Shown here piece after piece: positions 4,375 through 62,883 of a DNA stretch of 64,000 nucleotides. Numbering within the stretch: the first letter of the stretch is position 1; the number at the start of each line of letters is the position of its first letter. The notes under the pieces were generated by a model, which did not search any database, was not told the DNA's origin, and was given only the letters and a program-made list of their open reading frames with translations. Made by a program: the position numbers and the translations under genes. This DNA is from Eledone cirrhosa (Eukaryota): assembly GCA_964016885.1 (NCBI GenBank), contig OZ024740.1, positions 280,860,001 through 280,924,000 of the forward strand, given 5' to 3'.

Positions 4375-4912
<538 letters not shown>

Positions 4913-6934: not shown

Positions 6935-8080
6935 AGGATGGTGGTAGGAGGATGCTGCTCTGTCAAAGATAGCCTTATTAGAATCTCAAAAACCTCTCTT
7001 CTAATAAGGCTACTATAAGCTAACAGCGGCTTCTCGCAACCTATCACTTACTCTCCTACTAACAACAACAGCAATAAGAAAAGAAAGTGTAACAATATAC
7101 AAACTATCTGGTTCTCTCCTCCCTTCTCACTCAACGTTAAAACCAATGTAGGCAAAAAATTTCTAGCCCTCTTAGATAGACACTTTCCCATTGGTCATAA
7201 ATACCGCTCCATTTTAACCAACACAAAGTAAAACTAGGATCCTCCTGCACTAAGAACATGAAGGCCCACATCACCAACAGCCCTAACAGCAACTCCCCAC
7301 CAAGGTGCTTTTGCCGTAAGCCCGACGCTTGTCCCCTTCAACAGCAATGCAACACACCCGCTGTAGTTTATGAAGCTGTGGTCACTTGCAACCGACCAAA
7401 TCAACCACAGGAGGTCAAACTCTATGTGGGTATGGCGGAGGGCCGATTTAAGGAACGCTTCCAGACCACCCGGATAGACGTTCATCCACGAAACTCGCGA
7501 GCCATGTATGGTCCCTCAAGGACTCAAGTAAAGACTAGTCCATTCAATGGAAAGCCATCACTAAGTCCAAGCCATACGCAAGAGGCAATCCGTCGTGTGG
7601 ACTATGTTTTGATGAACGAATAAATATTCTAAAGAGATTACGCAACAGTGATTGCCTAAACTCGAGAAATGAATTCTTCACACGTATATATATATATATT
7701 TTTTTTTCTATATATATATTTTTATTTTTATTTACATTTATTTACGTATTAACGTGTATTCATCTATTTGTTCCTCTATCCTTCTTATCTTCTCTCTATC
7801 ATACGTTTATTCTTATTTACATTTGTCTCTCATCTATATATCATCGTATTCTATATATCTTCCTCTCTTTATATTTCTATCTATAATAACTTCTCCTTTT
7901 CTTCTTCTTTCTCTTTTTCTTTTTCTTTTTCCTTCTTCTTCTTTTTCCTTCCTTTCCTTTCTTTCTTTACTGTATCTATCTCCCTTTCTTCCTCCCTTTT
8001 CTCTCTATATCTTTATTATTAATATTATTATTGATGATGTAATTTGAATTTGTAAATTTGTTTCCGATGATCTAGTAGAG
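6935..8080 (+). mobile_element. Degenerate Hydra-like Penelope element 3' part (thumb, linker, GIY-YIG, 3' tail) with a short inverted 5' segment
   Basis: IWFSPPFSLNVKTNVGKKFL..LDRHFP; CFCRKPDACPL..VVYEA..LYVGMAEGRFKERF; 6935-7000 encodes SNKAIFDRAASSY on the minus strand. Confidence 0.85.

Positions 8081-10626: not shown

Positions 10627-10630
<4 letters not shown>
8081..10630 (+). mobile_element. Penelope-like element (Neptune/Nematis-like), 5'-truncated and frameshifted; RT + GIY-YIG + pLTR with HHR
   Basis: LYGLRKDHK; SMDVVSLYPS; QEEGAAIG..IANLFM; YSRYVDD; YIGETARSIGERINEH..EAINI..PKLN; ends in (TA)n. Confidence 0.95.
10381..10423 (+). ncRNA. Minimal type I hammerhead ribozyme in pLTR (family A)
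   Basis: gtca CTGAAGA g gtcaca gaatg tgtgac GAAA gaac TT tgac. Confidence 0.85.
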
Positions 10631-15374: not shown

Positions 15375-15459
<85 letters not shown>

Positions 15460-15618
15460 ATACTTTGAGAGGGTCATGTTGCCAATAAGAAACACACGCA
15501 CCAGTTGCTTTCACTTCAATTTATTATATATTTATGAATTTATAAATTTACAAATCTACAAATTTATAAATTTCTGGTTGGTTGGTTGGTTCCACAACCA
15601 GATAGTTGTTTATATATA

Positions 15619-15661
15619 GTCATAGTCCTTTCGTCACACACTCTGTGACCTCTTCAGTGAC
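15619..15661 (-). ncRNA. Minimal type I hammerhead ribozyme (family A)
   Basis: RC gtca CTGAAGA g gtcaca gagtg tgtgac GAAA ggac TA tgac. Confidence 0.88.
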
Positions 15662-15866
15662 TGGGGATTCCTTTCTTTGTTTCTGTGCCTTTCCTTTCTT
15701 CTGTCCTACGCCATTTTGTTTCTGTGTGTGTGTTGTGTGCTCAGTTTGCGCATGCGCCACATCCGGGTGCCTGTGTGTGTTTGTGTTCATTTATCTATTT
15801 GTTTATTTATTTACATGTTATTGGTTGGTTGTTTGTTCTATGTGTGTGTGTGTTTTCATTTTGTCC

Positions 15867-17300
15867 TTAATTGTAAGTTGTGATGTTGCTGTTCCACTCA
15901 TATTTTCTATTTAATTTTGGTTGTAATTCTTTTATGTTTATTGCCTCTGTAATTTGTCTAAACATTGCATCTTTTCTGTGTGTAGATTCTATTTTTATTT
16001 CTATGTTCTCTAATTTACCCTTGTGTTCTATCTTAGCATGTTGGTAGAGTACAGATGATTCTTTATTATCTTGAAGGTCTCGCCAGTGTTCATTTATCCG
16101 TTCCCCTATACTACGAGCTGTCTCACCTATGTACACTATATTTTTGTTTCTACATTGTCCTTCAGTACATCTTATGCTATACACTACATTTCTAGTTTTA
16201 CAGTTATTATGGGGGCTTATTTTACAGGTTATACATTTCTTATCTATACATGAGGGTCTTTGGAACGGGTATGTCTTGCTAATAAGTGTTTTTACGGAGG
16301 TACCTGGTCTTTCTACTATCTTAATATTGAGTTTATGTTTATTTAGGGCCCTTCTAAATTTGTAGGCTAGTTCGCCTCTAGGGGTTGTATCGATGAACAT
16401 TACACTCTGGTATTTATTGCTATCATACCATGAGTTTATTCTATTGGCCTTGTTCCTAGTTCTTTCTATTCTATTCCAAAATTTGCTCCTATACAAGGGG
16501 CAGGTCCCATTTATGTCCTTATTTACCATTTTTTCCCATTTGGTTCTGGCTCCTCTATACACTCTGATTCTATCTCTCTGATTGTAGCCAGAGAACTGCA
16601 TACGGTGGATGAAGTGTTGTATGTGTCTCTCTAGTTCTTCGGGGTTGCACATGTGGGACACATTTCTCATCACCCGTACCAAATCCTCAATCAGTATGTT
16701 GATTTTGGTATGGTCCGAAATGGCCGAGTTTCGGTGGATCAGATGTTTGGAAGTCATGGGTTTGGCATAATGGGAATGGAGGATTTGTTTTTGGTTGTTA
16801 ATGGTATCTAACCAGAGCTCTGTGTCTAGTACAGGTAATCGATGGTTGGCGTGTCTACTTGGGTAGTCTATAGTAACTCTAATGCTCTGGTGGATGGAGT
16901 TTGCTATTTTCTGGATGCTTTCCATTGTGTTTTTCTCTAGTTCCTGACTGTTCTCTAGTGGGGGTGTCTTAACTACGATGTTTATATCATCTACGTAGCG
17001 GGAGTACATTATCATGGTTAAGCTGTCTTCTAATTGTTCTTTAAGTTTAAGTTTAAGTCTACTGTCCCACCATACCATGAATAAGTTAGCTATGTCGCCT
17101 GCAATGCTAACACCAATGGCTGCTCCTTCCTCTTGGGCATATGTTTTTCCATTAAATTTGAACATATGTTCCTTACGGGTTAATTTTATGCTGGCCCCTA
17201 TCGTATGTGCAATCATTTTCTTCAGTTCATCGTGGTTTTCGGGTGTCCGTATGGCTCTGGTCCACCCGTTCCATCTATCTGTTTGGGTTTTCTTGTCCAT
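15867..17300 (-). pseudogene. Uninterrupted 477-aa PLE ORF segment: RT C-terminal half + Cys linker + GIY-YIG endonuclease
   Basis: GAAIG, RYVDD, LPVLD, CIDKKCITC..C, NVVYSIRC..C..YIGET..R..EH, H..R..EA..LN. Confidence 0.92.
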
Positions 17301-17394
17301 TGAGGTAATGGTATGTGGTCTGCCTCTTGCTGGTCTTGTAGGGCACAGGTTGCTAAGGTCATATGTGTCTAGGTAACTATTATATATATATATA

Positions 17395-17705
17395 TTTATT
17401 AAAATAACAGATTAAAGTTTAAGCAAAGAATCGCTGCTTTCACCCTTAACGGGATCTTCTTTGGTTCATAATGTGTGATGATAGTCAAGTTTGCAATTTT
17501 CAACTGTGGTCCACAGTTGAAAATTGCAAACTTGACTGTCACCACATATTATGAACCTGAAGATTGCGAAAGCATGAAGTAATTGTTCAATTAACACTTA
17601 ACATTTAATATTCTACCATACTATTTCATTCTAATACCATTATAAAATTTAAAGGATTGTAAATAAAACGAGTAAATCAGACAAAGTTGGAATTCCTTTT
17701 ATTAA
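17395..17705. repeat. pLTR-like relic containing a ~95-bp palindrome (17463-17557); related sequence at 10705-10775 and 63672-63740
   Basis: ggttcataat..ttgcaattttcaactgtgg t ccacagttgaaaattgcaa..attatgaacc; shared gatcccgttaagg.tgaaagcagcgattctttgcttaaac. Confidence 0.7.
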
Positions 17706-17859
17706 TATATATATATATATATTAGAAAGTGAGGGTTTTTTTTAAAAATGAAAAATAACCGAGGTATCCTACACGAGTGAAAGTATAAAGAAAAAGAGAT
17801 GAAATCGAAAATGCAACTGGAGTCTTATTTTTTTTTTAAATATATATATTTATTTGGTT

Positions 17860-17897
17860 CCTTTACCGGTTTCGCAGTTCATCTGCTTTTCAAAAGG
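17860..17897 (-). ncRNA. Minimal hammerhead ribozyme, U3-A8 variant
   Basis: Exact reverse complement of 17961-17998. Confidence 0.75.
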
Positions 17898-17960
17898 TGA
17901 GTTGAGATGGAGGGTCTGTGGTTTTTCTCAGAGAAAAACCACACCCTCCATCTCAACTCA

Positions 17961-17998
17961 CCTTTTGAAAAGCAGATGAACTGCGAAACCGGTAAAGG
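17961..17998 (+). ncRNA. Minimal hammerhead ribozyme, U3-A8 variant
   Basis: cctt TTGAAAA gcag atgaa ctgc GAAA ccgg TA aagg. Confidence 0.78.
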
Positions 17999-18065
17999 AA
18001 CCAAATAAATATATATATTTAAAAAAAAAATAAGACTCCAGTTGCATTTTCGATTTCATCTCTTT

Positions 18066-18157
<92 letters not shown>

Positions 18158-19717: not shown

Positions 19718-20252
<535 letters not shown>

Positions 20253-21502: not shown

Positions 21503-21714
21503 AAACTATATATATGTGTTTGTGTCTATATTGTATCTGTATTATTTTTGACCGCCGGTCAGTCAATGGCAACATTGTAAGTTAGATTACCGATATAAAA
21601 GACACAGAAGCGAGAAGCGAAAACCAACCAAACAGTGAGTGTGTTCTGTTATTAATTCTGGCAATATTACACAAATATGACCCTCCCCAAGTATAACAAT
21701 ATATATATATATAT

Positions 21715-22239
21715 TGTTATGCTTTGGGAGGGTCATGTTGCCAGTAAGAAACACACGCACCAGTTGCTTCACTTCAATTTATTATAATAAATTTATAATA
21801 AATTTATAAATTTATAAATTTCTGATTGGTTGGTTCCACAACCAGATAGTTGTTTATATATTGTCATAGTTCTTTCGTCACACACTCTGTGACCTCTTCA
21901 GTCCTACGCCATTTTGTGTCCTACGCCATTTTGTTTCTGAGAAACAAAATGGCGTAGGACAGAACAAAGGAGAGGCACAGAAACAAAGAAAGGAATCCCC
22001 AGTCACTGAAGAGGTCACAGAGTGTGTTACGAAAGAACTATGACAATATATAAACAACTATCTGGTTGCGGAACCAACCAACCAACCAGAAATTTATTAT
22101 AAATTTATTATAATAAATTGAAGTGAAAGCAACTGGTGCGTGTGTTTCTTATTGGCAACATGACCCTCCCAAAGTATAACAATATCGGTTTCAACACACG
22201 ATTTCAGATAAAGAATCCTGCTAAACAAATTCAGAAACG

Positions 22240-22245
<6 letters not shown>
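21715..22245. mobile_element. Head-to-head solo pLTR pair of family A, each with an HHR (21863-21902 minus; 22002-22044 plus)
   Basis: Palindromic junction ccattttgtttc tga gaaacaaaatgg; both arms match 10330-10630. Confidence 0.9.
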
Positions 22246-24154: not shown

Positions 24155-24368
24155 GACACACACACACACAAACACACACACATATACATATATATGAAAA
24201 GAGAAGTAAGGTTCTACACAAAACAGTGGTTATCGAGAAAAGGTGAGATTGGAAATAGCACTGAAAATATATTTAAGGGTCTGTTTTTCTCAGAATCAAA
24301 GTAAAGGAAAAGAAAAAAACAGACCCTTAAATATATTTTCAGTGCTATTTCCAATCTCACCTACCCCC

Positions 24369-26873: not shown

Positions 26874-26879
<6 letters not shown>

Positions 26880-27366
26880 GGAAAAAATGAAATTTCATTT
26901 CTCACTCTTAGTACGGCTGATACTTTAATATAAGTATGTATACGTACATACATATATGTATACAGACGTACAGTAGTATGTATATACATACATACATGCA
27001 CACATATATATATGTACGTATGGGTTTACCGAACATTTATTATAATGTTCGGTTTGTTTGTAAAGAAACAGCCCGAATTATTAGCCGTACAGTGTTCGGC
27101 AACCATCGTTGCCATTTTGTTCAACACTGACAAAGGAACGATGAACTAGTTTCTAGCTTATTAGCTGTCATCAGCACCGTATACCTTCCTGTCAGTCAAT
27201 TGAACGTTTGAAAGCTAATAATTCGAGCTGTTTGTTTACAAAGAAACCGAACATTATAATAAATGTTCGGTAAACCCATACGTAGATATATATATATGTG
27301 TGCATGTATGTATGTATATACATACGACTGTACGTCTGTATACATATATGTATGTACGTATACATA

Positions 27367-27370
<4 letters not shown>
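26874..27370. mobile_element. Retrozyme-like family C, diverged subfamily, as an inverted pair
   Basis: 26874-27192 and its partial RC 27216-27370; HHR at 27139-27179. Confidence 0.85.
27139..27179 (-). ncRNA. Minimal hammerhead ribozyme (family C variant) with a compensatory stem I change
   Basis: RC cggtg CTGATGA c agct aata agct a GAAA ctag TT catcg. Confidence 0.88.
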
Positions 27371-27411
<41 letters not shown>

Positions 27412-28986: not shown

Positions 28987-29148
28987 TTATTGGCGGTGGA
29001 TTGGCAGTATCAGCATAGTTACGTCCCTTTACGATCTGAGTTCAAATCCCGCCGAGGTTGACTTTGCCTTTCATCCTTACGGGGTCGATAAAATAAAGTA
29101 CCAGTAATGCACTGGGTAATTGCTGGCTTTGTGCCTAAAGTAGAAACA
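28987..29148 (+). mobile_element. tRNA-derived SINE
   Basis: A box tggcagtatc, B box gagttcaaatcc, conserved body gcctttcatccttacggggtcgataaaataaagtaccag; TSD attatgagaaa (28976-28986/29149-29159). Confidence 0.9.
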
Positions 29149-31144
29149 ATTATGAGAAAGGATAGTTAGCGCTTTAAAATCACAACAATACTAAACATTG
29201 CAAATTTAGACGATTTCTCATACCGAATTTAAGAAGCCATTATTCCGCAGGTTCATCCGAATCCTTTCCCGTAAATTAACGTGCTGAAGAGGACTCAATA
29301 CTGGAGTTTGAGAAATGGCAATTGGTTTCATTGCAAATAATGAATTATGATTTCATCACATACAGATTTATAAGGATTATAGAGTTGTGGCTACCGAGAG
29401 AAATCAGTAGAAAATGTGAGACAGTATTTATTGCAGATTTGATGTCTTTATTTCTATTCTGTTTTTCGAGCTTGAAAAGCAAATGTAATGCAAGATATTT
29501 AATATTGTTTGTGATCGTGAGTTTGTGTTGTTGAGAGAGGCAATAGTGTTACATCTCTATCGGAGAATTCGTTTGAACTCTTTTCATGAGCATGTCAGAT
29601 ATAAATTTCTTAGTCTGTTTGTGTGTCGCGATTATATGTGGAAAATTAAATACATGTAAAAATGGTTGATTTTCTCTCTTTAGGGGAGAGTGCAGCCAAA
29701 AGAAATAAGAAACAATAATGTACAGAACGAAAAGCGTGTGCATCATAAATGAACCTCAGATCTAATAGACGCCTGCTTTGGAGTGACCTAGCAGGCATGT
29801 TTCAATGCAAAAGATCTGAGAAGAATGGTGTATATTAGTAAACAAACGTGTTAAAAAGTTTTTATACCATAAACGGTTAAAGTCATCCCCCAAGATAAAG
29901 AATAACAGCATCGATTTCTATAATTTTTTCAAACACCAAATCAAGTGACGCGAATCTCAAAGACGAAACTGGTGTGTATACCGATAGAAAAGGATTTAAA
30001 ATGGGTGGTGATAATAAACGTTACTTTAAAGAGTCACTATATTGGAGAGATTTATTGCTAGAACCAATGGGCTTGTTGGCTCGGTGAAAATCTTACTCTT
30101 GGCTACTGTGGTAGTGAGCAACATACAATCAAGAAATAGAATTCAGGAAGGACTTTGTTTTGTGTACAACATTGCTTTAGAAAACAGTGGCAGAAAATAT
30201 AAACGATATATTAGAAGTAAAGGCATCTAATTTGAGATTATTTGAGATGTTGGGAAGTAATATTTTTTAAAGATGGCAGACATCATCCTAGATATGTCAG
30301 AGGCTGAAATTTGGAGGTCAATGTGTTTCTAGTACGTTAGGGTAGACTTACGCTGCCTGGTGGTTGTTTCAAGAGTGTTGCGAAATGTATCTATTATTAT
30401 TGACGGTATGTCGCTCTCTTCAGGAGGTTTTGGATGTGTCCTTTCCTTGTATATTACAGTGTAGATGCATATAAAATGCTTGGTTGTTTCGAAGTTGTTT
30501 GAGGAATGCGTACAGATATATATATAAACAGTTTAAAATAACAAACGTTTTAGTTTCGTGGCAAGCAATATCTAAGTGAAGACAAGGGCGTGAAACAATA
30601 TAATTTAGGTGTATTAATATCATTAATACGTATAGTTGTCACTAATGCATATGAACATCTGCAACCAGCTGCTAATAAATGGTGGAAGAAGTTGAGTTCA
30701 TTAAATAAAGCTGCTTAAATGAAAGTAAGCCTCATAGCATTTAATACGACAAATATTTACAACTTCATAATTTTGTGTTTAATGCGAGTGTTTGAGTAAC
30801 TACCGTTTTCACTTCTACGTCAAATACATAATTAGATTATGTTGTTGCTATAGATTCTTAACAAAGATTCTGAACAAATACATAAAGATATTATTAAGTA
30901 CTTCCATCACTCACTGTATTTATCTGTCTCATCCCCATTTTAATATTTATATTCTATCATTAACTGGTAGTCTCTAAGGTTCTTTATCCGATTTTTATAA
31001 AATATTTCATAGCAACTGACTGGAATTGCAGCTATTTTCTGCGCTTGAGTACCTCACGTTTTATGAATTTATCTCTTCGGCGTTTCGTAATATTTCGAAT
31101 ATTCGAGCTTTACACACGACGCTTGTTTACACAAACACACACAC

Positions 31145-31816: not shown

Positions 31817-32088
31817 TTCGTTTCTGAATTTGAGAAACAAAATGGCGTAGGACAGAAGAAAGGAAAAGCACAGAAACAAAGAAAGGAATCCCCAGTCACT
31901 GAAGAGGTCACAGAGTGTGTGACGAAAGGACTATGACTATATATAAACAACTATCTGGTTGTGGAACCAACCAACCAACCAGAAATTTATAAGTTTGTAA
32001 ATTTATAAATTTATAAATATATAATAAATTGAAGTGAAAGCAACTGGTGCGTGTGTTTCTTATTGGCAACATGACCCTCCCAAAGTAT

Positions 32089-32095
<7 letters not shown>
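31817..32095 (+). mobile_element. Solo family A pLTR with HHR (31895-31937) and a 15-bp inverted terminus
   Basis: gtca CTGAAGA g gtcaca..tgtgac GAAA ggac TA tgac; tttcgtttctgaatttg is the RC of the pLTR end. Confidence 0.88.
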
Positions 32096-32172
<77 letters not shown>

Positions 32173-32337
32173 TTCATACATGCTTATGCGTGTGTCGAGT
32201 ATTTAGTACATGATGATATTTTTCAAGATGGTTTATAACATCAATATTTCAACATCACACCACAGTATTTGTATGTGTGGAACAATATATTTAGTTGTTT
32301 GTCATTACACCTTTGAAAATGAAGAAACATAATAGAT

Positions 32338-32958
32338 ATAAGTATGTACACGTACATACACATCTGTATACAGACGTACAGTAGTATGTATATATATATA
32401 CATACATGCACACATATATATATGTACGTATGGATTCACCGAACATTTATGCTCGGTGTGTTTGTAAACAAACATCCCGTATTAAGCCGTAGTGTCCAGC
32501 AACCATCGTTGCTCGTTTGTTCAACACTGACAAAGAAACGCTGTACTATTTTCAAGCTTATTAGCAACGTATACCTTCCTGCCAGATTGTTGAACGTATA
32601 TACATATTAACTTATGCATATTAACGGCTGAGTAGCCCAATTTGCATATCGAGTGGGTTAATCGGCCGGGTGCACCGAAACGATAAACGGAAAAAATGAA
32701 ACGAAATTTCATTTCCCACTCTTAGTACAGCTGTTACTTAAATATAAGTATGTACACGTACATACATATATGTATACAGACGTACAGTAGTATGTATATA
32801 TATATATACATACATGCACACATATATATATATGTTCGTATGGATTCACCGAACATTTATTATAATGCTCGGTGTGTTTGCAAACAAACATCCCGTATTA
32901 AGCCGTAGTGTCCAGCAACCATCGTTGCTCGTTTGTTCAACACTGACAAAGGAACGCT
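32338..32958 (-). mobile_element. Retrozyme-like family C, 1.5 head-to-tail units (period 406 bp); HHR core deleted
   Basis: ataagtatg at 32338 and 32744; ...ttagcaacg lacks the tcgtcag core. Confidence 0.88.
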
Positions 32959-33653
32959 CCTTTACGTAATTCTACTGAGGCATACACCCAGCATCTCAAA
33001 TATAATCAATAAGACTTTGCTAATGATGTGTCATCCTTTGAAAACATTACTACCAAATAAAATGAATAATAAAGTTATAATCCAAATTGAATAATTCTTT
33101 GCAACTTCTAGAAGAGTGAAATATTTCCTTTCTTAGTAATAGTGAATGACATTAAATGAATAGTCATGGTTCCTTTTGTCATTCACACCATATTAAATTT
33201 AATTATAAAAGAAATAAAATATTTCTGCGCTACAATTAATAACTCAATCCTATTTGGTTAACTATTAATTTCATTTATTATAATGATAATTTTGGAACTA
33301 TCTTTAAAAAAAACCCGCATTAGATTTCACAGAAGCAACGGCATCTTGTTAGAGAAATGGTATCGATTGATGACAAGTTGTGTGTAAAACAGCTTAAGTT
33401 TCGAGCAAAAATATTTTCATCTTTTGAAATATCTTTCAAAGAAAATCCATTCAAAACCAATATACTTTTCTATATTCAATAATTACATCTGATATGGTAC
33501 GTGGAAATATAAATGGATTTTTTTTATCCGACCTACTCATATACTCCAATGTACCCTGTTAACGCTATAAACTTCTTTTTTATTTGTCATTGGAAAACTA
33601 CTTTAATAGGCTGATGTTGAATCAGTCAGCTATACCCAACTCCAAAATATAAT

Positions 33654-33829
33654 TGTTTCTACTTTTGGCCCAAGGCCAGCAATTATCCAGGGTATTACTG
33701 GTACTTTATTTTATCGACCCCATAAGGATGAAAGGCAAAGTTAACCTCGGCGGGATTTGAACTCAGATCATAAAGGGCCGTAACTCTTTGCTGCAAAGCA
33801 TGGCGTCCGACTCTCTACCGATACTGCCA
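33654..33829 (-). mobile_element. tRNA-derived SINE
   Basis: RC of the 40919 family; TSD tccaaaatataat (33641-33653/33830-33842). Confidence 0.9.
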
Positions 33830-34782
33830 TCCAAAATATAATGATGTTGTACTCGGCCAATATTCCATCAAAAGAGAATGTCAATAACACCAATCCAAGG
33901 CCAATCGTTGATCACTGTGTTATCATTTATTACTTTATCTTCAAGTCCTATGAGCCATTCAGTTCAATTACGCTTATGCTTAAGTGGTTTTCTCTTGACA
34001 GTATTTTGAAGGCTTTGTAATTGAGATTCTGAGTAAAAAGAATGTGTTAAATGAACATATCTCCTGTTTAAAATAGGAGACAATATTGCTTGTGTCAACG
34101 TTGTATTCCAAAATTCCAATAATCGATTAATCAATTCGAAAGCTTCCAATTACGAAGTGGAATTGAGGGGATAAACGGAAAGCAAAAGAATGTTTACAGA
34201 TCGTACAGCGAAATTTCAGATTTAAATCAGTTTTATTATCGGAGTTATAAAAGATTGAATATTTAAACATTTTATATTTTGATATTTAATGTATATCTTT
34301 TATTGAATTTCTGTAGCATATTAATTTTAACTAAATGATACGCTAACTCTACGGGAGTCTGATTAAAAATGTATGGTATTTATGATACTATAAATCGGTT
34401 CATATTCAAAGAAAGCCATTACATAACATTTAACCTTATTTGTAAAATACACCACATTTATTTTCATTAGTTTCCTGACGAGTTCTATAAGTATGTTTCA
34501 ATTGTAAATGGATAATGTTTTTTGTTATTCTTGACGTTGAAATTTCAAAGTTTATATTTATTTTCATCAATTTCTTCGATATTTACAATTATGGTAATTT
34601 GTATATAAATGTAATTTAATATACATACAAATAATAAATACACGTAAAATACTCTATGAGGTACATATAAATATTGGGTACTGAAAGTACCCAATAAAAA
34701 TGTCGAAATTAATTGTATTAAATAGATCTATGACCATGGACATGTAAATAACAGAAAAAAAAACTGGCATATCCTATATTAC

Positions 34783-35552: not shown

Positions 35553-35737
35553 GGGCGGTGGATTGGCAGTATCGGTAGAAGGTCGGACGCCATGCTTTGC
35601 GCATAGATTTACGATCCTTGCCATTCTGAGTTCAAATCTCGCCGAGGTTAACTTTGCCTTTCATCCTTACGGGGTCGATAAAATAAAGTACCAGTAATGC
35701 ACTGGGTAATTGCTGGCCTAGTGCCAAAGGTAGAAAC

Positions 35738-35741
<4 letters not shown>
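35553..35741 (+). mobile_element. tRNA-derived SINE
   Basis: Full copy of the same family as 28987 and 40919. Confidence 0.9.
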
Positions 35742-35794
<53 letters not shown>

Positions 35795-39079: not shown

Positions 39080-39202
39080 ATACATATATACGTGCATACA
39101 CACACATACATACAAGAGCCGGATAGTAACACTGAAGTAACATCTTCAACAGAAGAAAAAAGTCAGAACCATCTTGCCCAGGTTTATGAGCATGAAGGAA
39201 AT

Positions 39203-39265
39203 AATTGTTTCTACTTTTGGCACAAGGCCAGAAATTAAGCCAGTGTATTACTGGTACTTTATTTT
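39203..39265 (-). mobile_element. SINE 3' fragment
   Basis: aattgtttctacttttggcacaaggccag..ctggtactttatttt. Confidence 0.75.
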
Positions 39266-39304
39266 AATATATGGGCCTAAACATTCCTCATAGAGGGGAT
39301 AAAT

Positions 39305-40918: not shown

Positions 40919-41103
40919 GGGTGGTGGATTGGCAGTATCGGTAGAGGGTCGGACGCCATGCTTTCCAGCATAGTTACGTCCCTTTACAATCTGAGTTCAA
41001 ATCCCGCCGAGGTTGACTTTGCCTTTCATCCTTACGGGGTCGATAAAATAAAGTACCAGTAATGCACTGGGTAATTGCTGGCCTTGTACCTAAAGTAGAA
41101 ACA
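40919..41103 (+). mobile_element. tRNA-derived SINE inserted into a pLTR
   Basis: 17-bp TSD attatttattatttgat (40898-40914/41104-41120). Confidence 0.92.
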
Positions 41104-41510
41104 ATTATTTATTATTTGATAAGATGAAATATATCGAAACAGTTAATATTTTGTATATTTTATAAAACCCTTTTTTTTTATAAATAGCATTTTGTCGGAT
41201 TAAAGAAGAAAAAAGAATCCTTTAAACATACTTCCATGCCGTTTCTATTCTTACATTTTTTTCTATAACCTTTATATATATATATATATAATCTTTGATA
41301 TATATATATATATCAAAGATTATATATATATATAAATCAAAGGTTATAGAAAGAAATGTAAGAATAGAAACAGCATGGAAGTATGTTTAAAGAATTCTTT
41401 TTTCTTCTTTAATCCGACAAAATGCTATTTATAAAAAAAAAGGGTTTTATAAAATATACAAAATATTACCTGTTTCGATATATTTCATCTTATCAAATAA
41501 TAAATAATAA
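41104..41510. repeat. Tail-to-tail palindrome of pLTR-like arms with U3-A8 HHR motifs (41111-41150 plus; 41462-41501 minus)
   Basis: Arms centred on (TA)n near 41305; tat TTGATAA gat..atc GAAA cagg TA ata. Confidence 0.8.
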
Positions 41511-45353: not shown

Positions 45354-46285
45354 GCGGAGGCCTCCTACCTCTTCGGTCTCATAATTAGCCTTGGCAAGAC
45401 TGATGTCCTGTTCCAGCCTGCACCTGCCTCCGTCGCCCACCTCCTTCCATCTCCATTGGAGGCACCCAGCTAAAGACGGTGGACGACTTCAAGTACCTCG
45501 GCAGTATCATCAGCAGCGATGGAAGCCTCGACGAGGAGATAAACGCCAGGATCTGCAAGGCTAGTCAAGCCCTTGGCCGCCTGAGGACACGCGTCCTGAA
45601 CCAGCACAATATCAGGCAGTCCACCAAGCTCAAGGTGTACAGGGTTGTTATTCTCAGCAGACTCTTCTACGCATGTGAGACATGGACCCTGTACAGAAGG
45701 CACCTGAAGCAGCTGCAAGTGTTCTACATGCGCAGCCTGCGGTCAATCATGAACATCAAATGGCAGGACAAGGTCTCCAACCTCGAAGTTCTTGACATGG
45801 CTGAGACAACCAGTGTCGAAGCTATGATACTGAAGAGCCGACTTCGATGGGTGGGACATGTCATCCGGATGGACGATCACAGGCTTCCGAAGAAACTGAT
45901 GTATGGGGAACTCTGTTCGGGGAAACGAAAGCAGGGCAGCCCTCTCAAGAGGTTCAAGGACTGTGTGAAGCCCAGCATCAACAACACTGGAATCGCCCCA
46001 AAACAACTCGAGTCCCATGCTCAGGACAGGACTGAGTGGCGAGCCCTTACCAAACACGCCAAAGACTCTTTTGAAGAGAAGAGACGGACAGAGGTCACTA
46101 AGGCCCGTAAAAGGAGGAGAAAGTCATCAGCAGCTGCCCAAGTGACTCCGGTCTCTTCCCCTGCCCCCACTGTCCCCGTACCTGCAAGTCAAGGATCGGC
46201 CTCCACAGCCACCTTCATGCCACGGCAGACAGGAACAACAATAAAGAAGTTGTCATCATCGTTTACGATGGGCAACCAAGAAGAG
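45354..46285 (+). mobile_element. RTE/BovB-like LINE, 5'-truncated, with a 26-bp TSD
   Basis: FKYLGS..EINARICKASQALGRL..RLRWVGHVIRMDDHRLPKKLMYGEL; TSD acaattatttgcttgaaaatatgaac (45328-45353/46286-46311). Confidence 0.95.
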
Positions 46286-47479
46286 ACAATTATTTGCTTG
46301 AAAATATGAACAGTTGTTGGTTATTTGTATTTTGTTGAATTCATTGAACATTCTTATCCTGCTAATTGTGAATTCAATAAGAATTTGTAATGTTTGTGAA
46401 AGTGGTTTTTGATTGAAGAGCACCCTTGGAGGTGCTCTTCACTTGCTAATATTTGCAACTATATCTCCATTGAACTATGCCTGAAAAATATAATTTTAAA
46501 ACAATCTGCCACAACATGCTTTGAATTCACGTATGTAACGCCGGTCGAACGTGGAAACGATGCGTGTGAAAGACATATCACAACGCATATGAACACCATA
46601 TATATAGTTACAGACTCAGCATACATTGAGTATCATAGAACAAACGCAAATACAGTTTGGCTGAAAATATAGACCCCCAAACTCATATAAACACACCCGA
46701 AATTACAACAAAACGTAATACAAACAACCTTCTTCACCTTATTAAATTCTCCAACTTCAACAACGATATTATATCATTTAGAAACCGTAATTACACGTGA
46801 CGTTTTGAATTTAGTTGGACAGTGTTTTATTAGTTACTCAGAGGTGGGGGAAAGTAACGGCTACCGGTTCATTTCGAACATCTGTTGATTAACATCTGCT
46901 TTAAAAAAACAAACGAACAAACAAAAAAACGTTTTCATAGACTACAGTTCGGGCGAAAAATGATTAACAGTAGCCTGTAGTGCAAAATATTGGAGGTGAA
47001 ACATAGTAAAGGTGGCAATGTTAGATTGAATCTAGAAAAGCAAACTAATATCTTACAAAATCACAATGATTTCAGTATTCGAATTCAAAACGGAAAAGAT
47101 AAATAGTTTAAAGTACAGCTGAAATTTAATCTGTTCAAATGAGTTGATTGTAATTTATATTGAAAAATGAGATTAATTTGCGGGACAGTGAAAATATCGT
47201 TAAATCGATAACTACAGATGTTGTCCACAAGCCGTTTGTTATGATTAGGATATACTTTATTTGGTAAAACACTAAAACCTATTTGGGATAATACAATATT
47301 GGTGGTGAGTGAAGGTGGAAAAAGAGAGTGAGCTAGACTGGAGTGGAAGGGACACGAAAACAGCCAGCACTGAAAGGAGGCTACTGCAGTAGTGGTAGAA
47401 AAGGAAGAGGAAAAAGACAGCACATCTATGGAGTAGATGCTGGAATGTCCCAGTAACAGACACATTGTCAGTTAATTGA

Positions 47480-52534: not shown

Positions 52535-52619
<85 letters not shown>

Positions 52620-52621
<2 letters not shown>

Positions 52622-53012
52622 AGTAAGAATATTTTCGAAACAGCGAGTGGGTTTGAAATTATTAGAAATATAAGCTATCGCCGTATTTGACGTACATTGA
52701 CGTACATTTAGTCAAAATACGGTGATAGCTTACATTTCTAATAATTTCAAAGCCACTCGCTGTTTTGAAAATATTCTTACTTGACATTACAGTCGCTAAG
52801 TTTATAGCTTCTAATTTGAATGGAAAAAGACGGGTGATGTGTTGGTGTAAATGGTAGCACAGTGGTCCGGATAACCAAAGATGTGGGTTCGACTCCCATG
52901 TACGTTAATGTACGTTTTCCATTTCTCCGAGGGTTCTTAACCCCACTATCAGGCTAAATAATTTCTTTAATTTCTTTAGTCAAAATACGGCGATAGCTTA
53001 CATTTCTAATAA
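52620..53012 (+). mobile_element. Inverted + partial-tandem (268-bp period) non-coding element containing a tRNA-like cloverleaf
   Basis: 52620-52691 is the RC of 52711-52783; 52689-52707 is the RC of 52898-52916; direct repeat 52707-52745/52975-53013; (TA)n flanks. Confidence 0.8.
52836..52907 (+). tRNA. tRNA-like cloverleaf (pseudo-tRNA, 72 nt; nominal anticodon GGA, non-canonical loop)
   Basis: Acceptor gatgtgt/gtacgtt (GU-rich), D gtgt/gcac, anticodon tggt/acca, T gtggg-ttcgact-cccat; A and B boxes; TTTT at 52915-52918. Confidence 0.65.
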
Positions 53013-53020
53013 TAATAATA

Positions 53021-53054
<34 letters not shown>

Positions 53055-53649: not shown

Positions 53650-53868
53650 ACCAAATCTGTAGAATTACAGTCGGTCACAGTTAATGTGAGTGGGTACACA
53701 CACACTCACACACACAGACGTGAGATTAAAGAAAAAATATATACATATACCAACATAGCATCAAATCTGTAGAACTATAGACGGTCACAGTTAGTGTGAG
53801 TGAGTACACACACACTCACACACACCGACGTGAGGTCAAAGAAAAAATATAAATATACCAACATAGTA
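53650..53868. repeat. Tandem duplication (~110-bp unit) in the PLE 3' tail
   Basis: caaatctgtagaa..cggtcacagtta.tgtgagtg.gtacacacacactcacacaca..gacgtgag..aaagaaaaaatat twice. Confidence 0.9.
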
Positions 53869-56771
53869 TTCACTGAAAGTTAGTTTACAAAACAACAAAT
53901 GTTATATTGGTCAAATCTCAATTTGACGATGTAAATTGGAAAAATTGGGTCAACCGCAACCCTATACACACGCAAGTAAGTTCAGTTCAATGTTCTGCTA
54001 TACGTGTATAGATTGAATTGTAACATCCGTATCTCCAAATAGTGTATGTTATGGTATATACACATCCGTATCATCCAAAAAAGTGTATGTTTTGGCACAT
54101 ACACATCCATGTGAAGAGCAAGTAGTCAGCTCATATCGAACTCAGTATGTGCCGTTGTCCCATTGAGAATCTGAATCCCCAAATCTGTGTGTGCAAGCAA
54201 CCGCTATGTAGGCCACCAAGGGGCTCTGTATATGGTTGAGTATTTGGGTTATGGTGTCAGTATGTGCGATTTCAGTCATATGGGCCCTTGGGCTTTTAAG
54301 ATAGGTGTTTGAGTGGTGGAGGTGTGTTATCCAACACAAAAATAAAAATAAAATAAAATAAAATAAAATAACAAAGAATAGCAAAACCCAGAGGATGTGT
54401 GCAGGCGCATTAATGGTGTGTAAGTATTATTGTCCAATCTGTAACCGTGAGCACTCCATGGTTAGATGATCACGGATCAAAACCCAGTGTAGTGTTCAAT
54501 TGATAGGAACGTGACCAGTCATAACTGTGGGAACTCAGTGTCTAAAGAAACCGGGTACTGTGTGTAGAGTTATGTATAGAGAGCGTAATCGGTCTTAATT
54601 GAGTGCGTAATACGTCTATCTATATCTTAACCGAGAGAACTCAATGGTTAGGGTATCCTAAAGTAATGGTGAATGCGCGTAATCTATCTTACCTGAGTGT
54701 GTAATCATTCTAACTATTTACTAACTAGGTATTCTAAAGTGCACTCAGCTGTGAGAACTCTGTGGAAACAGGCCGAGTACCGTTTGTAAGTGCGCAAACG
54801 ATCTTAGCTGTCTAACTACCTGAGTGTGTGATTGTCTGTTTTTTGCTAATTGAGAGAACTCTATGGCTAAATTAGATAGGGAGGAGTTAGTGGTAGGTTA
54901 CTTTCCAAAAATCCTGCGGAAGGTTTTCGAGGTTCTATGTTGGCAGTTGCTGAAAAAATCCGCTCTCCTATTGATTAATAGGGGGCCGCCTCTAATAATA
55001 TTAAAGGTTTCAGCTATACATAAATTACAGACGCCCGTGCTGCCGTTATATGGCATTATTCTCCTATCTAGGAAAACCTTAATTGAGTTCAAAGGTGACT
55101 TGTGGACCAGGAAAGATTGGTGGGACAATTTCGATATCACCATGGGATCCACGGACTCGGCCCAGGTGACGGATCTGGTTGGTCTTTACTTCCTCGACTG
55201 TCTCGGAGTGGAAATGCCCCACTTGGGAGGTGGAGCTTACCGTGACGACGTTTTGTTTACTGTGTCGTTCCATAATAATAGTATAGTAGAGAGGGTGAGG
55301 AAAAAACTTAGTAAATTCTTCAACAATATACACCTAAGTATAATGTTTGAAGAAAACCTGAAGATAGTTAATTTTCTAGATGTTACACTTAACCTCAATT
55401 CAGGACTCTTCCAACCCTACCAGAAACCCAACGAGAATTTAAATTATGTCAACGCAAAATCGAACGACCCTAGAATAGTCACTAACGGTGTTACCAAAAG
55501 CGTCTCTAGTAGAATTTCAGGACTATCTTCCAATGAAGATACATTCGATAGGATCTCAAATTACTACAATAGCGCCCTGGAACGCGCGGGGCATAGCGAG
55601 GGAATCTCATTCAAACGTCCATTAAATAGTAGTACCAACATTGCCTGCGATAGCTTAGGCCAAAATAGTGACACTTTAGTTAACAGCAGGCGGGTTGCGA
55701 GGGAGGATCAATATAGACTTCATGTTGATTTGCCCCCTAGTCCCAATGTTGATGGTACCAATGGAAACAATCACCCAGGTATAAACACGGGGTCTGAGCA
55801 CCGTAATGCCAGCGGAAACTCTAATCGTAACCTCAATTGTAGAACTGATAAAAAATCGTTGAACGTAAAATGGACCGGGGGTCGGGTAGAGGGAATAGGG
55901 CATAGTGGATATAACCCCGGCTATCGTGGGTAATCCCAATAGCTGCATGGGGGTACACCGCCCCGGAGACGACTTGGAACGATTCAAAACACAATCGGGA
56001 CACCCCAGGAGACCATCGACCCAGGGGCAGTTTTCAGTAATAATAGACCAGTAGCAACTAAGGAGACAGGTAACTCTAGTATAGATAGTAAGAACAAGAG
56101 GCACCGGACCAGAAAAATCCTGTGGTATAAACCCCCGTACTCCACCGGCCTAAATCACTAGTATAGCTAAGCTTTTATTTAGGGCCTTAGACAAATGCTT
56201 CCCTAGATCACACAGATACTATAAAATATTCAATAGAAATACCATCAAGCTGTCCTACTCCACAACCAGTAACATAGCTCAGAATATAGCTAAGATGAAT
56301 TATAGTAGACTTAGGACAGCCTAAGGGGGGATGAGACATGGCAGAACTAATGGAAGCTCTATGGATGAACGGACTCATACACGTAAGGCGAGTCGGGTTA
56401 CCCCAACCCCTTGGAACTTACCCATAGAGTAGTCAAAGAACTGAGACCCGACCCCAGAGGTACCGTGGTTTCTATGGAACTACCCTGGTCAATAACAGAA
56501 AATGTAATTGCAGGAACACCGCCACTTGCCCCATGGCTGGGAAATGCCTCACCAAAAACATAGTCTACGACTGTAAGGTCTCCACTTTAGATAGAGCCTT
56601 CAGGTATGTTGGGGCAACTGCCACTGAATTTAAGGATAGATGGTATAATCACTGCCATACCTTTAATAGATTGGATAAAAAAAAAATAGCACGGCGCTTT
56701 CTGAATTAGTCTGGAAGCTTAAACAACAATATATATATATATATATTTGTGTGCGTATATATATATATATT

Positions 56772-57769: not shown

Positions 57770-59640
57770 TGCATACCAGATAGAGACAGAAGCAACGACA
57801 GCTACACTACCCACACCTATAGAAATAAAAGAAATATAGGACTAAACATAGAATTAGACAACGAGCAAAACAAATAACTGAACCGAACACTAATATAAGG
57901 ATCCCTAGGAACTATAGAAGATCCAGAGATAGGAAATAATTATGGTTCAATCGAATATTCAACTCCTCTATAAAAACCAAACTACATTCTACATTCTTTA
58001 AGCTAATCGACAAACACTTAACTAAAATACACAAATACCATAGAATCTTTAATAGAAAAGCTATCAAACTATCTTACTCTACGACAGCCAACATAGAATC
58101 AAACATACATAAAATCAACCACAAAAATATCTCTAAAGAAAATAACCTACCAACATACACCAAAGCACCAAATACAAAACCCAAACGCATTAAAACATCG
58201 CAACCAGACATACATCAGGGCGCATCACAACAAAACATTAATTGGCCTAAATCTCAACCCACCCATAACAACATACAAAACCGCAATGGAGAACCTGCAC
58301 ACAGAAAAGCCTCCAACTGTAACTGCCACCTACTGGATAAGTACCCACTACAAAATAGATATCTGGGTTCAAGTATGGTGTACCTGTGTACTATAAGTTC
58401 AGGCAAATTTACTTGGCACTACATAGGTTCCACGACTGGGGGGGGGGTAAAAAAAAGATGGTACGTTCACAGACACTCTATGAAGAACGATAGACTGGAG
58501 AACTCTACAACGCTCGCCAATAAAATCTGGCACCTTAAAAACACAAACCAGGAATATAGGATTAGCTGCTCAAAATTATCGTGAGCAAGGGCCTACAACA
58601 ATGGAATGTCGCACTGTAGACTTTGCAATATGGAGCTATTCCATATTTTAAGGTACGATAAGATGCTGCTTAACAGCAAAATGTAGGCACAAAATAGCTA
58701 CCAAGTTCACAAATTTCAACCACCGTGATTCGACCCAGAAATCCCAAAATTAGAACTGAACCACCTGGATTTTAACGTACGGAATACATACCATCACACC
58801 ACTATTAGCTGTCAAGCTGCCGACTGGACACTAGATCATAAATCTCTTAACATCTCTTTCACCCTCTCTCCCTGAAACCACATCAACCCCATTAAGACAA
58901 GACGATCAGAAAACATTTACCACACACACTTGTCAAAAACACCCCTTCACCAGCTACCCTTAGCCCTTGGGTCTCATACTAGTATCTCCCACTTAATTTC
59001 TAATTTATTGCTTTTTCTTTTATCTGTCATTTGTTACTACATCAGATTCTCTACACGTATCTATGTATCTTTCGAATATAGCTTTTCATGTTAGCACTAC
59101 ATCCACCACAGCATCCTTACACAGACACTTACGCACCACAACCACTATCATATTCTGTACTTACATGCTCTCACTTATCTTTATTTCTTTATATTTTTTT
59201 TATTTTTCCATTCTCTTACTTTTTTATTGTATCTTTTTTCTTACTTTCTACTTTTTACATCTGTAACTTCTTAACCTATTTATCATATATTTTATTATTG
59301 CTGTTATTGTTTTGATTCTACGCTATTTCTATATATATATATCATGCCATGTATGAATTATTTGTATTCTGAGGATTTTATCAGAGGTAAATAATGTAAT
59401 GGTGATCGAGTGACGCAACTTCGAGCGATTAGCGACTCACCTGATCAAGGAAACAATTGTTAATACCTGAAATAAAGCCCCTTGTTGTACAGCCAACCAT
59501 GTTACTCTTCAATCTTTCATTATTATTACTCCAAGTATAACCTGCATAGGAACTCTCGCGAACTCGCTGCCTAACTATGGAAACATCTTGTTGAATCAAA
59601 CAAAGCCGTACGTTTAAACTATCCACGACACAAAATACTC
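57770..59640 (+). mobile_element. Decayed Hydra-like PLE 3' part
   Basis: IWFNRIFNSSIKT..FFKLIDKH..HKYHRIFNRKAIKLSYST; NCNC; VYLCTI..YIGSTT..KKRWYVH; CRLC. Confidence 0.82.
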
Positions 59641-59934: not shown

Positions 59935-62712
59935 GATATTAAATAAATGGAAACTATATTTATAAAACCATATTTATTTCATTATACATATTTCAGGGAT
60001 ACCAAATTAAAATATGGTATGCCTTCATCAGAAAAAATACAATATATAAACAGTTTTATAAATAATTTTGACATACTCTATTAGATGCGACCATTATTTT
60101 TGGAAGCTGTCTGGATAGTGAGATGTTTATAATTATAGTGTTAAGCACAGTTAGAAAAAAGACGGAGAGAAAGAAAAAAACGGAGAGAGAGAAGGAGGGA
60201 GAGAAAAGGAAGATATATATAAAAATAGATAGGAGGAAATGAAAAAGAAAGAAAAAAGAAAGAAATAAGAAAGGCAAAAGAAAGCAACAGAGAGATAATA
60301 ATTCATCATACAGATAGAGAAACTCAAGAGAGAAGAAGTACTATATAGAGAGAGGAGGATATTGTGACAACTTTACGTCATGTCATATTAAGTTGAATTA
60401 ACCATTCATATGAAATGAATAATAAAAATGTAAATATCAATATTCATGAATGAGACATAGATATATAATATGAGAAAATAACATTGTTCAATAATGACCA
60501 TATGTTTAGTTTACAACCTTGAGGTCAATATACCAAAATCTGAGTTAAAACCTTCAAAAATTACCCTATTTATAAAAATACGGATACATATATGTATTTA
60601 TATATACACGCATATGTACGTTCTGAAAAAAGAGAAAATTATGTCTACTCCAGTCAATAATATAGACATACAAATGATTTCACTTGATCCCTTCTATACA
60701 TTTCTTGTGTTATAAAAAATTCTCAGTATATATACATAAAAGTACGATTAATATTCATGTCCTCACATACATGATTACCGTTCATGTATTTAATATTATG
60801 CATATCTGCACCACACATCAACATATACACACACAGCCATACATACACATATATATGTATAAATAAATATCTGCGTGAGTTTTCCAGCATCGTTATGCAC
60901 ATATACAGACATATATACGAACACATAAATAAACTCTATAAACCTTCTATATGCATGTTAATACACACAAATGGCCTTTGTATAGAGATAATCAAATATC
61001 AATATATTAACACAGAAATATCAAAGCATTAAATATCTTTAAAACACTATAGAGTATCTCAAGTTAAAACAATATGTTTTATATATTTATTATAGAAATC
61101 TATTCTACTTATATCTCAAACAAGATATTGCAAGGGTAGACATATGAAAGTTATTAGAAGCTATCAGAGTAAAAAAAAAACAAATAAAAAAAAATAATAA
61201 TTTAAAAGATTTAGAAGACCCAGTGATTCTACTGGTGTCCTTATATTTAGTATAGAAATTTATCTTACGTAAATTTTATTTAATACATTGGGAGCATATA
61301 CATTTTAGAGTAGTTTATTATATCCTTGTTTATATTTAGGAAGAAAATTTAAAAAGAAAAAAGAAAAAGGTGAAGGAATCCAATGATTTATCGTCAGGTT
61401 TCATATATTAACTAAATTTCTTAAATTAATTATACTACATTTTAAATTTATATTTATATTTAAACGTTGAGTTCAATCTATGTCTGCAGCAACTGAATAA
61501 ATTGCTCCTTAAATTAAGGGAATTTTTGGACTTTAATATAAAGAATATTTCCTCTACACAAAGATCGCAATTCTCTGATGAGGAATTAAAAGGAATACCT
61601 TTTGAGACAATATTCCAAATCATCGAATATTTAACATTATCTCGTTTAAGGTGCCAGAGTAGGCTAGATAGCGAAGTTGAGGATTTTTTGTTTGGATCTG
61701 TGAAAGAATTCTTATGATTATTGAAGCGAAGTTTAAATTCTGTCTAGGTGGAACCAACATAGTTAAAAGAATTTAAATTACTTTTAACATTACAATTATA
61801 CACTACATTTTTAGCTAAGCAGTTGTTATTTAACGGACAGTTAGATTTATTTCTACAGTTACAGTTATTTAATTGAATATTGTTTGGGTTATTATTGGTA
61901 TTTTGGTTAGGTTTTAAATTCCTATTATTAATTCTGTTAATATTTTGTGCTAAATTTTTGGTGGACGAGTAAGTTAATTTTATAGTGTGTCTATTAAAAA
62001 TTGAGTGATATTTATGTGTTCTAGGGAAGCGTTTGTCAAGAGCATTAAAGAATAGTTTAGCAATATGGGTTTTAATATTTAGTGAGAAAGGGGGCGGCAA
62101 ACCATAATATATTTCTAGTTCTATTTCTTTTTCGGCTTTTGGAATTATTGTAATGTTTTCTATTATAGTTGTTAAGGTTGTTACCGTAATTAAAATTGTT
62201 ATTATTTTAGTTAGTTTGCTTATTATTATCGATGTACTTAATTTTATCTCTATATCCTGCTCTAGCTAACGCTTCATTGTAATACTGCGCTTTTTCATCT
62301 AAAATATTTTTATTAGATGAAATTCTTGAAATTCGTTCTTGAACAGAGTTCACTATAGTATTTTTAACAGATCTGGGGTGATTAGAGTTAAAATTGACAT
62401 AATTCAAGTTCTCATTTAGTTTGTGAAATGGATAGTGAAGACATGTGTTGAGATTTAGTGTTAGATCCAGAAAATTGACTATTCTATGGTTATTCTCTAT
62501 TTCTATTTTTAGAGTAAGGTAATTAAAAAATTGTATAATTTGTTTTCTTTTTCTATTTAGTTCACAGCTATTATTTTCAATAAGTAAAAGCATGTCATCA
62601 CGATATAATCCTCCGGTTACACCTGGTATTTTTCTATGTAGCGAATTAATTATAAATAGGCCCACAAGGTCCGTTACCTGAGCTGAGTCAGATGATCCCA
62701 TAGTTATGTCTG
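59935..62712 (-). mobile_element. Hydra-like Penelope element, 5'-truncated
   Basis: DITMGSSDSAQVTD; GLYRDD; PPFSLNIKT; CNCRNKSNCPL..NVVY..YVGST; CDLC.EE..LN.RS..CRH. Confidence 0.92.
59975..60039 (-). ncRNA. Minimal type I hammerhead ribozyme in the pLTR of the 59935-62712 PLE
   Basis: RC CTGATGA agg c atacca..tggtat c cct GAAA tatgta TA. Confidence 0.78.
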
Positions 62713-62883
62713 TAGTGACTCTTGCATCGCAAATAATGTTTCCGTACATCTTCTCATTCCCCACATCACCCCCCACCTCAATATTTAAAGCAATCAAACG
62801 TAACGATACTTCATTTATCAGTAAGAACCTCAACTGTGAAGTTGACTATGACCACTACCAACGACAAACACGACTACCACCAT

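Follow-up and report, generated by a model that had tools for sequence, protein, structure and literature searches.

The window, a 64-kb stretch (64,000 nucleotides) of Eledone cirrhosa DNA, is rich in (TA)n and holds PLE-type RT and GIY-YIG open reading frames (ORFs), one of which has an Octopus vulgaris protein as its best match (64% identity; one of 102 matches). Family A is represented by a broken PLE copy with an RT plus a GIY-YIG domain at the C terminus (8317–10628, + strand), a second copy with a 5′-truncated ORF (15452–17386, − strand) and short 3′-end derivatives that carry a minimal hammerhead-type core (21711–22241 and 31835–32096). The members of family B are non-coding, retrozyme-like and bear hammerhead cores (1336–1540, 6027–6637, 19721–20128, 26877–27376 and 32333–32958), and they include tandem and head-to-head copies. 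A SINE-like family with one fixed 3′ end is found at 35553–35742, 40919–41107, 33650–33833, 29013–29152 and 39202–39266. Two ORF pieces (45404–46309 and 1705–2091) presumably resemble the 3′ end of an RTE-type LINE; the first has no Pfam match. Degenerate RT/GIY-YIG-like pieces of other PLE-like families lie at 11019–13064, 54854–55933, 57940–58584, 61435–62845 and 7201–7886, and any of those families could be kin of the PLE partner of the element described below.

That element occupies 52620–53012 and is built on a 268-bp unit, with a 72-nt cloverleaf, a 39-bp direct repeat, an inverted arm of ~70 bp and (TA)n flanks. To its left is an (AT)41 microsatellite identified by TRF (52538–52619). 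The inverted arm (52620–52688, − strand) is the 5′-truncated reverse complement of unit positions 52715–52783; its sense 3′ end adjoins the (TA)n and contains a 39-nt tail, and this is termed the long end. Including the adjacent positions, the inverted pair spans 73 nt (52616–52688 and 52715–52787). A junction piece (52690–52707, − strand) follows, joined to the arm by short microhomology; in it, the final 10 nt of the tRNA-like domain recur inverted and doubled, and it matches 52898–52915 at 17 of 18 positions. The remaining 306 bp form a direct piece that begins and ends with a copy of the 39-bp direct repeat, the two copies being spaced 268 apart (52707 and 52975). It opens on the + strand with the 5′-truncated end of a previous unit, carrying the first copy of the direct repeat (52707–52744), and continues through the 39-nt tail between the two 3′ termini, a hairpin with a C-rich loop (52745–52783), and a linker (52784–52818). 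Next come the 5′ arm of a stem that closes the cloverleaf (52819–52835), where a Pol III start would be expected, the non-decoding cloverleaf itself (52836–52907), a private duplication of the tRNA 3′ end in place of the family trailer (52908–52914) and a T run (52915–52924) that is a candidate Pol III terminator as well as the 3′ arm of the closing stem. A small GGGTT/AACCC hairpin with a 3-nt loop (52927–52952) has no hammerhead on either strand, and the unit finishes with the second copy of the direct repeat and the short 3′ end (52975–53012), followed by the right flank, (TAA)n(TA)n(GA)n (53013–53053). This layout confirms the partial tandem of 268-bp period, the inverted pieces and the (TA)n flanks reported in the initial annotation. 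Both element junctions sit in microsatellite, so any TSD, noted as absent in the initial annotation, is unreadable here, and two 3′ ends are seen. Apart from microsatellite read-ins, the unit contains no ORF of at least 100 aa, and blastn and nhmmer found no second full copy in the 64-kb window. Of the 69 positions that the inverted arm and the direct copy have in common, 4 differ, and at three of those four the arm has the family majority base, a pattern that fits a single insertion event with decay afterwards. The window copy would then be one moderately aged head-to-head insertion of a high-copy unit.

Copies were sought with positions 52690–53012 as the query in four of eleven public sequence runs (X1, X4, X6 and X9); X2, X3, X5, X7, X8, X10 and X11 were left out. 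X1 yielded 2,049 matching contigs, 515 with at least 99% identity, 655 with 95–99%, 521 with 90–95% and 358 with less than 90%, so that 879 of the 2,049 are less than 95% alike. The eight longest X1 pieces listed have depths of 5–13, and the summed depth is 20,538 at 52906 and reaches 300,878 at 52943–52953, a sum that is no copy number since overlapping contigs overcount. We infer that the 268-bp unit is present in thousands of copies. X1 pieces join the tRNA-like domain both to upstream sequence (52742–52898) and to downstream sequence (52837–52996), and in X4 the contigs of the tRNA 3′ half and those of the 3′ part of the unit have equal depth (22.5 and 22). The whole tRNA is missing from one contig (a skip from 52762 to 52952, depth 24), and parts of it are missing from three others. 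Joints of units arranged head to tail were found at 52975>52707, 53006>52742 and 52958>52714, each in one contig with a depth of 6–13, and 14 contigs run on past 53010 with tail-like sequence resembling 52746 onward. No piece among those listed spans the whole of 52690–53012. A diverged form of the linker is kept in other copies (X1 and X6 pieces spanning 52793–52909), in which the loose ends before 52793 look like tail. Because contigs tie the tRNA-like part to flanking unit sequence in a multi-copy family, the unit is not single-copy and the tRNA-like part is integral to it rather than an independent insertion, the two points on which the initial annotation had staked its proposal. X4 and X6 gave few contigs, one per run being identical to the 3′ part of the window copy; these may be trace DNA of the same species and were for that reason not counted as cross-species conservation. 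A family-specific 20-mer had no matches in metagenome contigs. At 52743, just ahead of the tail, the letters of 121 X9 reads are AT-rich and heterogeneous (agreement 0.36), and some insertions may begin with the tail. X9 reads also break at 52898–52915, where the inverted arm of the window copy begins as well, and this could be a recurrent 5′ junction.

The initial annotation had described an internal 72-nt sequence with tRNA arm spacing and A and B boxes, and the analysis bears this out. Rfam matched RF00005 at 52836–52907 (+ strand) with 40.0 bits against a gathering score of 29, the sole gathering-level match in the window. ARAGORN called one gene in the whole window (52835–52908, 'Ser-GGA'), and the A box (52843–52854) and B box (52886–52896) are the only A and B pair with tRNA spacing on either strand of the window. 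The cloverleaf has 21 pairs, of which 14 are Watson-Crick, six G.U and one G.A (G27.A43); MFE folding of the region did not recover it (z 0.37). A serine anticodon is combined with a variable loop of 4 nt and a pyrimidine at position 37; together with G27.A43, these features presumably place the body at odds with any one isotype. A motif of the D arm is found in tRNA-Gln in 94 of 109 tRNA calls (119 loci, mostly prokaryotic), and whole-length identity in that same mostly prokaryotic set reaches 51 of 72 positions for Gln versus 52 for Trp. Positions 33 and 34 of the anticodon loop differ among copies. Because the anticodon loop varies freely, the domain is, judged from these alleles, not a decoding tRNA. 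Two defects of the window copy are repaired by majority alleles, U33 by T at 52868 (83,282 of 114,294 X1 depth) and G1-C72 by C at 52906 (20,289 of 20,538). Among the variants listed (40 of 69 rows), substitutions in the tRNA fall in the anticodon loop and the acceptor stem, plus a rare change at the already mismatched position 27; none of those 40, whose alleles are unphased, lies in the D stem or T arm, and both listed tRNA indels are in the D loop. Among the loose ends listed (231 further rows lie outside the listing), those from X4, X6 and X9 at 52819–52850 suggest a second subfamily with another leader and another 5′ strand of the acceptor stem.

Downstream of the cloverleaf, the window copy departs from its family. 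Summed X1 depth is 20,538 at 52908 but about 400 over 52909–52914, and the loose end after 52909 starts with ACTCATCTTTTT in all four runs examined (X1, X4, X6 and X9), reading ACTCATCTTTTTCCATT in X4. In the family trailer, a T5 run begins ~10 nt past the cloverleaf and belongs to one arm of a 17-bp stem. The trailer of the window copy is a private rearrangement in which the tRNA's final 10 nt are doubled; the doubled 10-mer, present in both trailer and junction piece, suggests slippage of the RT at the stem base. The TTTT that had been placed 8 nt downstream is real at 52915–52918, beginning 8 nt past tRNA position 73, but the spacing and length belong to this copy, the family having T5. In the family, 52819–52835 (AATGGAAAAAGACGGGT) can be paired by hand with the trailer at 17 of 17 positions, one of them G.U, forming a stem below a 3-nt bulge (positions 73–75) that reaches 5 bp past the T5 run. 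On the 5′ arm of this stem, T at 52831 accounts for 81% of X1 depth, and the outer 10 pairs (52818–52827 with 52915–52924) remain in the window copy. Common A>G alleles at 52826 (32%) and 52827 (84% of X1 depth) face U and are paired on the + strand only. The cloverleaf contains six G.U and no A.C pairs; the downstream hairpin contains one A.C mismatch, and the listed variants at 52936 and 52938 are in its loop. The excess of G.U over A.C in the cloverleaf and the A>G alleles facing U point to selection on the + strand RNA, as far as base pairing can tell. A reading of the element as a tiny DNA transposon with the 17-bp stem as its TIRs was set aside; the departures from pairing are of G.U type, and no TSD is visible by eye.

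The ends of the element resemble those left by PLEs. The 3′ termini of the direct piece and of the arm fall at unit positions 52744 and 52783, respectively, and are thus offset by 39 nt. A (TA)n target is seen at both ends of the window copy and in one X4 contig, the only instances. This contig ends at 52784 and passes into (TA)n; it has three family alleles only and lacks the private base of the arm, so it is not the window arm, and the recurrent long end rests on one genomic arm and one contig. According to the accessible text of Craig et al. (PMC8557442), partial tandems, an inverted 5′-truncated copy, a 30–40-bp tail at one end and (TA)n targets are all found in PLEs; the 39-nt offset here falls inside that tail range. 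In the part of Frangieh et al. available (PMC11167929), a PLE protein, acting at AT-rich DNA, cuts both strands and extends them, the RT starts at two internal sites that delimit the tail, and hammerhead cleavage is dispensable for insertion in vitro. The window supplies its own comparisons. Family A, taken as the 3′ region that follows its RT and GIY-YIG ORF, has two end positions only, 56 nt apart (5 of 5 copies), and family B likewise has two, 53 nt apart (8 of 8 copies), versus the 39-nt offset here. All three head-to-head pairs of these families combine one short and one long end, as does the tRNA-bearing element, and a conventional SINE used as a control has a single end in 5 of the 5 copies reaching it (seven matches). 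Collectively, the multiple copies, the joints, the inverted arm and the two 3′ ends lend good support to the earlier proposal of a PLE-mobilised, non-autonomous element, and we regard it as highly probable that a PLE mobilises this abundant 268-bp non-coding unit. The termini, tail, hairpin and linker of the unit had no match above shuffled sequences among the other PLE ends of the 64-kb window; a match at ~53561 to the 3′ terminus of the unit (15 of 16) was rejected, its score being below those of shuffles. The non-autonomous elements of Chlamys generally have 3′ ends in common with their partners, as stated in the text available from PMC8557442.

An explanation that dispenses with a PLE is that the family is an ordinary tRNA-SINE or tRNA-derived satellite, spread by a LINE or by amplification at the DNA level, with the inverted arm a one-off rearrangement in microsatellite. 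Summed X1 depth is 120–300k from the tRNA to the 3′ end versus 12–29k upstream, as expected of copies headed by a tRNA; however, 5′ truncation predicts the same gradient, and summed contig depth overcounts. Octopus genomes are also rich in SINEs, with hundreds of unclassified families (PMC13282606, in its available part). Against this, the tRNA is preceded here by 129 bp of the unit, and other copies still carry sequence homologous to that upstream part. The terminator comes directly after the would-be head, 8–10 nt past the cloverleaf (T4 here, T5 in the family); to our knowledge, tRNA-derived SINEs have no Pol III terminator before their 3′ end. Tandem joints, two 3′ ends and other opposite-strand joints are also foreign to this explanation, and the true SINE of the window behaves otherwise, with one end in all five copies. 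We therefore consider a SINE or satellite origin improbable. The earlier statement that the tRNA is not a SINE head holds for the window copy and for copies that keep the upstream linker, but other copies may begin at the tRNA.

Mobilisation by a PLE being the favoured reading, a hammerhead would be the customary way of producing monomers, and the initial annotation had noted that no hammerhead core is visible. This observation stands: the CTGANGA...GAAA core is absent from 52620–53012 and occurs at 24 sites elsewhere in the window. When one edit was allowed, the element gave two matches, both on the minus strand and both lacking a proper core. Rfam detected no ribozyme there, and its E-value scans gave only low-complexity or hairpin miRNA noise; this blank result is weak evidence concerning hammerheads because Rfam also missed the minimal hammerhead-type cores of the window in a control stretch. 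The weakness leaves some room for a decayed retrozyme, in which the hairpin at 52927–52952 is a hammerhead relic and the family a Sm-alpha-like element with both a tRNA and a hammerhead. One of the one-edit matches, a core start on the minus strand at 52952, is indeed followed by a hairpin and an A-rich word. It nonetheless runs antisense to the tRNA, without the G8-A9 pair of positions and without a GAAA in the right place, and the listed alleles build no core on either strand, which makes this origin very improbable. Folding of the whole element gives z = -13, a value due to the inverted arm, and the monomer alone gives z -0.1 to -0.6. A rod-like or viroid-like monomer was rejected; the monomer alone is not unusually stable.

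If a PLE moves the unit and no ribozyme defines its RNA, the tRNA-like module needs a role. The initial annotation had offered two, a Pol III promoter or an RNase P/Z processing signal, and the former is better supported: the module is a putative internal Pol III promoter with its own terminator, in keeping with its conserved A and B boxes and with published precedents. In Sm-alpha the Pol III promoter of the upstream unit transcribes the next unit (PMC6765202, available text), and Cassandra transcripts run from one 5S module into the next, where they end (PMC10886601, likewise). The mechanism we propose has three steps. First, transcription by Pol III would begin from an internal promoter supplied by the tRNA module, and most transcripts would stop at the module's own T5 terminator. 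Some transcripts would cross the first T5, enter the next unit and stop at its T5, giving a longer-than-unit RNA with a cloverleaf at each end and both RT start sites internal; no ribozyme would be needed to define the RNA ends because the read-through RNA ends at cloverleaves. Second, the PLE protein would cut both strands of AT-rich DNA and its RT would begin at two internal sites, one for each arm and one on either side of the tail hairpin, so producing the inverted structure. Third, the 17-bp stem would seal the 5′ leader to the trailer and probably shield the mimic from tRNA-processing nucleases. In full, with a PLE RT/GIY-YIG protein copying the unit into (TA)n in trans and the tRNA module serving as Pol III promoter and terminator, this model is somewhat better than an even bet. 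Its weak point is termination. By the vertebrate rule, a T5 flanked by C right after the tRNA should stop most Pol III transcripts, and the window copy requires a template that passed through two or more terminator positions, so the template may have come from Pol II read-through or have been circular.

The first of these leads to an alternative that keeps the PLE and changes the polymerase. The template would come from Pol II or host read-through of arrays, and the tRNA fold would serve RNA stability, localisation or protein binding, or would be a passenger with a short, dead-end Pol III RNA. The strong-looking T5 directly after the tRNA agrees with this, as does the closing stem, which extends 5 bp beyond the T run so that the selected RNA includes sequence past the terminator; a read-through Pol III RNA would hold the full stem too, however. 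Newt satellite transcripts are apparently Pol II products, as reported in the available text of PMC6765202. A perfect B box and a conserved A box would still need a reason, and we hold a Pol II template to be doubtful.

Monomer cutting is less favoured than the Pol III promoter role. Here a PLE again mobilises the unit, and each cloverleaf would be cut by host RNase P, perhaps together with RNase Z, freeing monomers in the ribozyme's stead. In its favour, the entire cloverleaf keeps its pairing (20 of 21 pairs) and not the boxes alone, whereas Helenus keeps promoter motifs and not a tRNA-compatible fold (PMC10886601, available text). The junction slips of the window copy also end exactly at the discriminator base, and X9 contains 515 reads with non-tRNA letters before the last 10 nt of the tRNA (52898–52915) and 35 reads with inverted joints at 52915, although these RAD reads may derive from very few loci. 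Paired leaders are poor RNase P substrates, and in this family, by hand pairing, the trailer can base-pair with the entire leader and with the −1 base. The insertion ends of the window copy lie off the tRNA boundaries, the monomer has no special linear or circular stability, and PLE RT takes unprocessed RNA in vitro, as the available part of PMC11167929 states. Release of monomers by RNase P is thus unlikely.

The element has partial counterparts among known systems, the nearest being Sm-alpha of schistosomes and the retrozymes, both of them with hammerheads. Sm-alpha and Sj-alpha of Schistosoma, as described in the text available from PMC6765202 and PMC2770079, also consist of a short tandem unit with a tRNA-derived Pol III promoter inside a multimeric RNA. 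Sm-alpha derives from tRNA-Gln in that account, and the D-arm motif here is mostly found in tRNA-Gln, a likeness by description and not by sequence; unlike Sm-alpha, in which an active hammerhead frees monomers, no hammerhead core was found in this unit, and a T5 run and a 17-bp closing stem come right after its tRNA. Animal non-LTR retrozymes are likewise non-coding tandem units of a few hundred base pairs, with low GC and a proposed dependence on PLEs (PMC7229834 and bioRxiv 10.64898/2026.07.22.740005, in their available parts). According to the same sources, each retrozyme unit has a type I hammerhead and a circular RNA and is often homologous to PLE pLTRs; in contrast, the unit here has no core, no pLTR match in the window and a monomer that is not specially stable. 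Similar in architecture are MRC1 of Chlamys and the hammerhead-less Naiads, with partial tandems, head-to-tail insertions, an inverted 5′-truncated copy, a 30–40-bp tail, microsatellite targets and no canonical hammerhead; the available text of PMC8557442 describes no tRNA module in them, its single mention of tRNA being about selenocysteine, and their 3′ sequence is generally common with an autonomous partner. The TRIMp3 elements Helenus, Ajax and Cassandra are non-autonomous retroelements with a small-RNA gene as internal Pol III promoter (PMC10886601, available text). They are LTR elements, with a PBS, a PPT, a short TSD (4–5 bp) and a dependence on integrase, whereas the sole direct repeat here is 39 bp and excludes the tRNA, and the ends are of PLE type. 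By the features tested, the unit is neither a retrozyme, a standard SINE nor a TRIMp3 element, and may work like a retrozyme or a Sm-alpha element.

No tRNA-bearing, hammerhead-free PLE passenger was found in the available text of the literature on Penelope and tRNA, SINEs, retrozymes and PLEs, including PMC7229834, PMC2770079, PMC4758252, PMC10294476, PMC13282606 and bioRxiv 10.64898/2026.07.22.740005. The family may already be catalogued under another label, for example in Repbase, Dfam or the O. vulgaris library, since these lie outside the literature search. Three octopus tRNA retroposons were reportedly described by Ohshima and Okada in 1994.

LINEs have parasites with tRNA promoters, the SINEs, and LTR elements have TRIMp3; the short PLE parasites described so far, in the sources as available, are hammerhead retrozymes or 3′-end derivatives. 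A tRNA-driven, hammerhead-free family would, if real, fill this gap as a PLE counterpart of SINEs and TRIMp3 elements, and self-cleavage would not be required for retrozyme-like spread. More tentatively, the family could stand for a class of ribozyme-free PLE parasites in which a Pol III promoter and terminator pair yields a terminally redundant RNA, and the PLE RT jumps between cloverleaves to give tandem, permuted copies without self-cleavage or a circle. Such a jump would resemble the use of the R region by LTR elements, and parasites of this kind may have arisen in several animal lineages. For the question of how PLE tails and inverted tandems arise, the unit would also offer a minimal substrate of 268 nt in which two start sites are mapped. 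Families of this type inflate the counts of tRNAs and probably go under the label of unclassified SINEs or satellites.

Other repeats of the window also invite comparison. Near-perfect fold-backs of up to ~400 bp (41104–41508, 17784–18074, 24241–24362, 4372–4567 and 17463–17557) adjoin or surround (TA)n and are possibly further head-to-head insertions. Just downstream of the element are two two-copy tandems, of 110 bp (53652–53866) and 41 bp (54023–54108).
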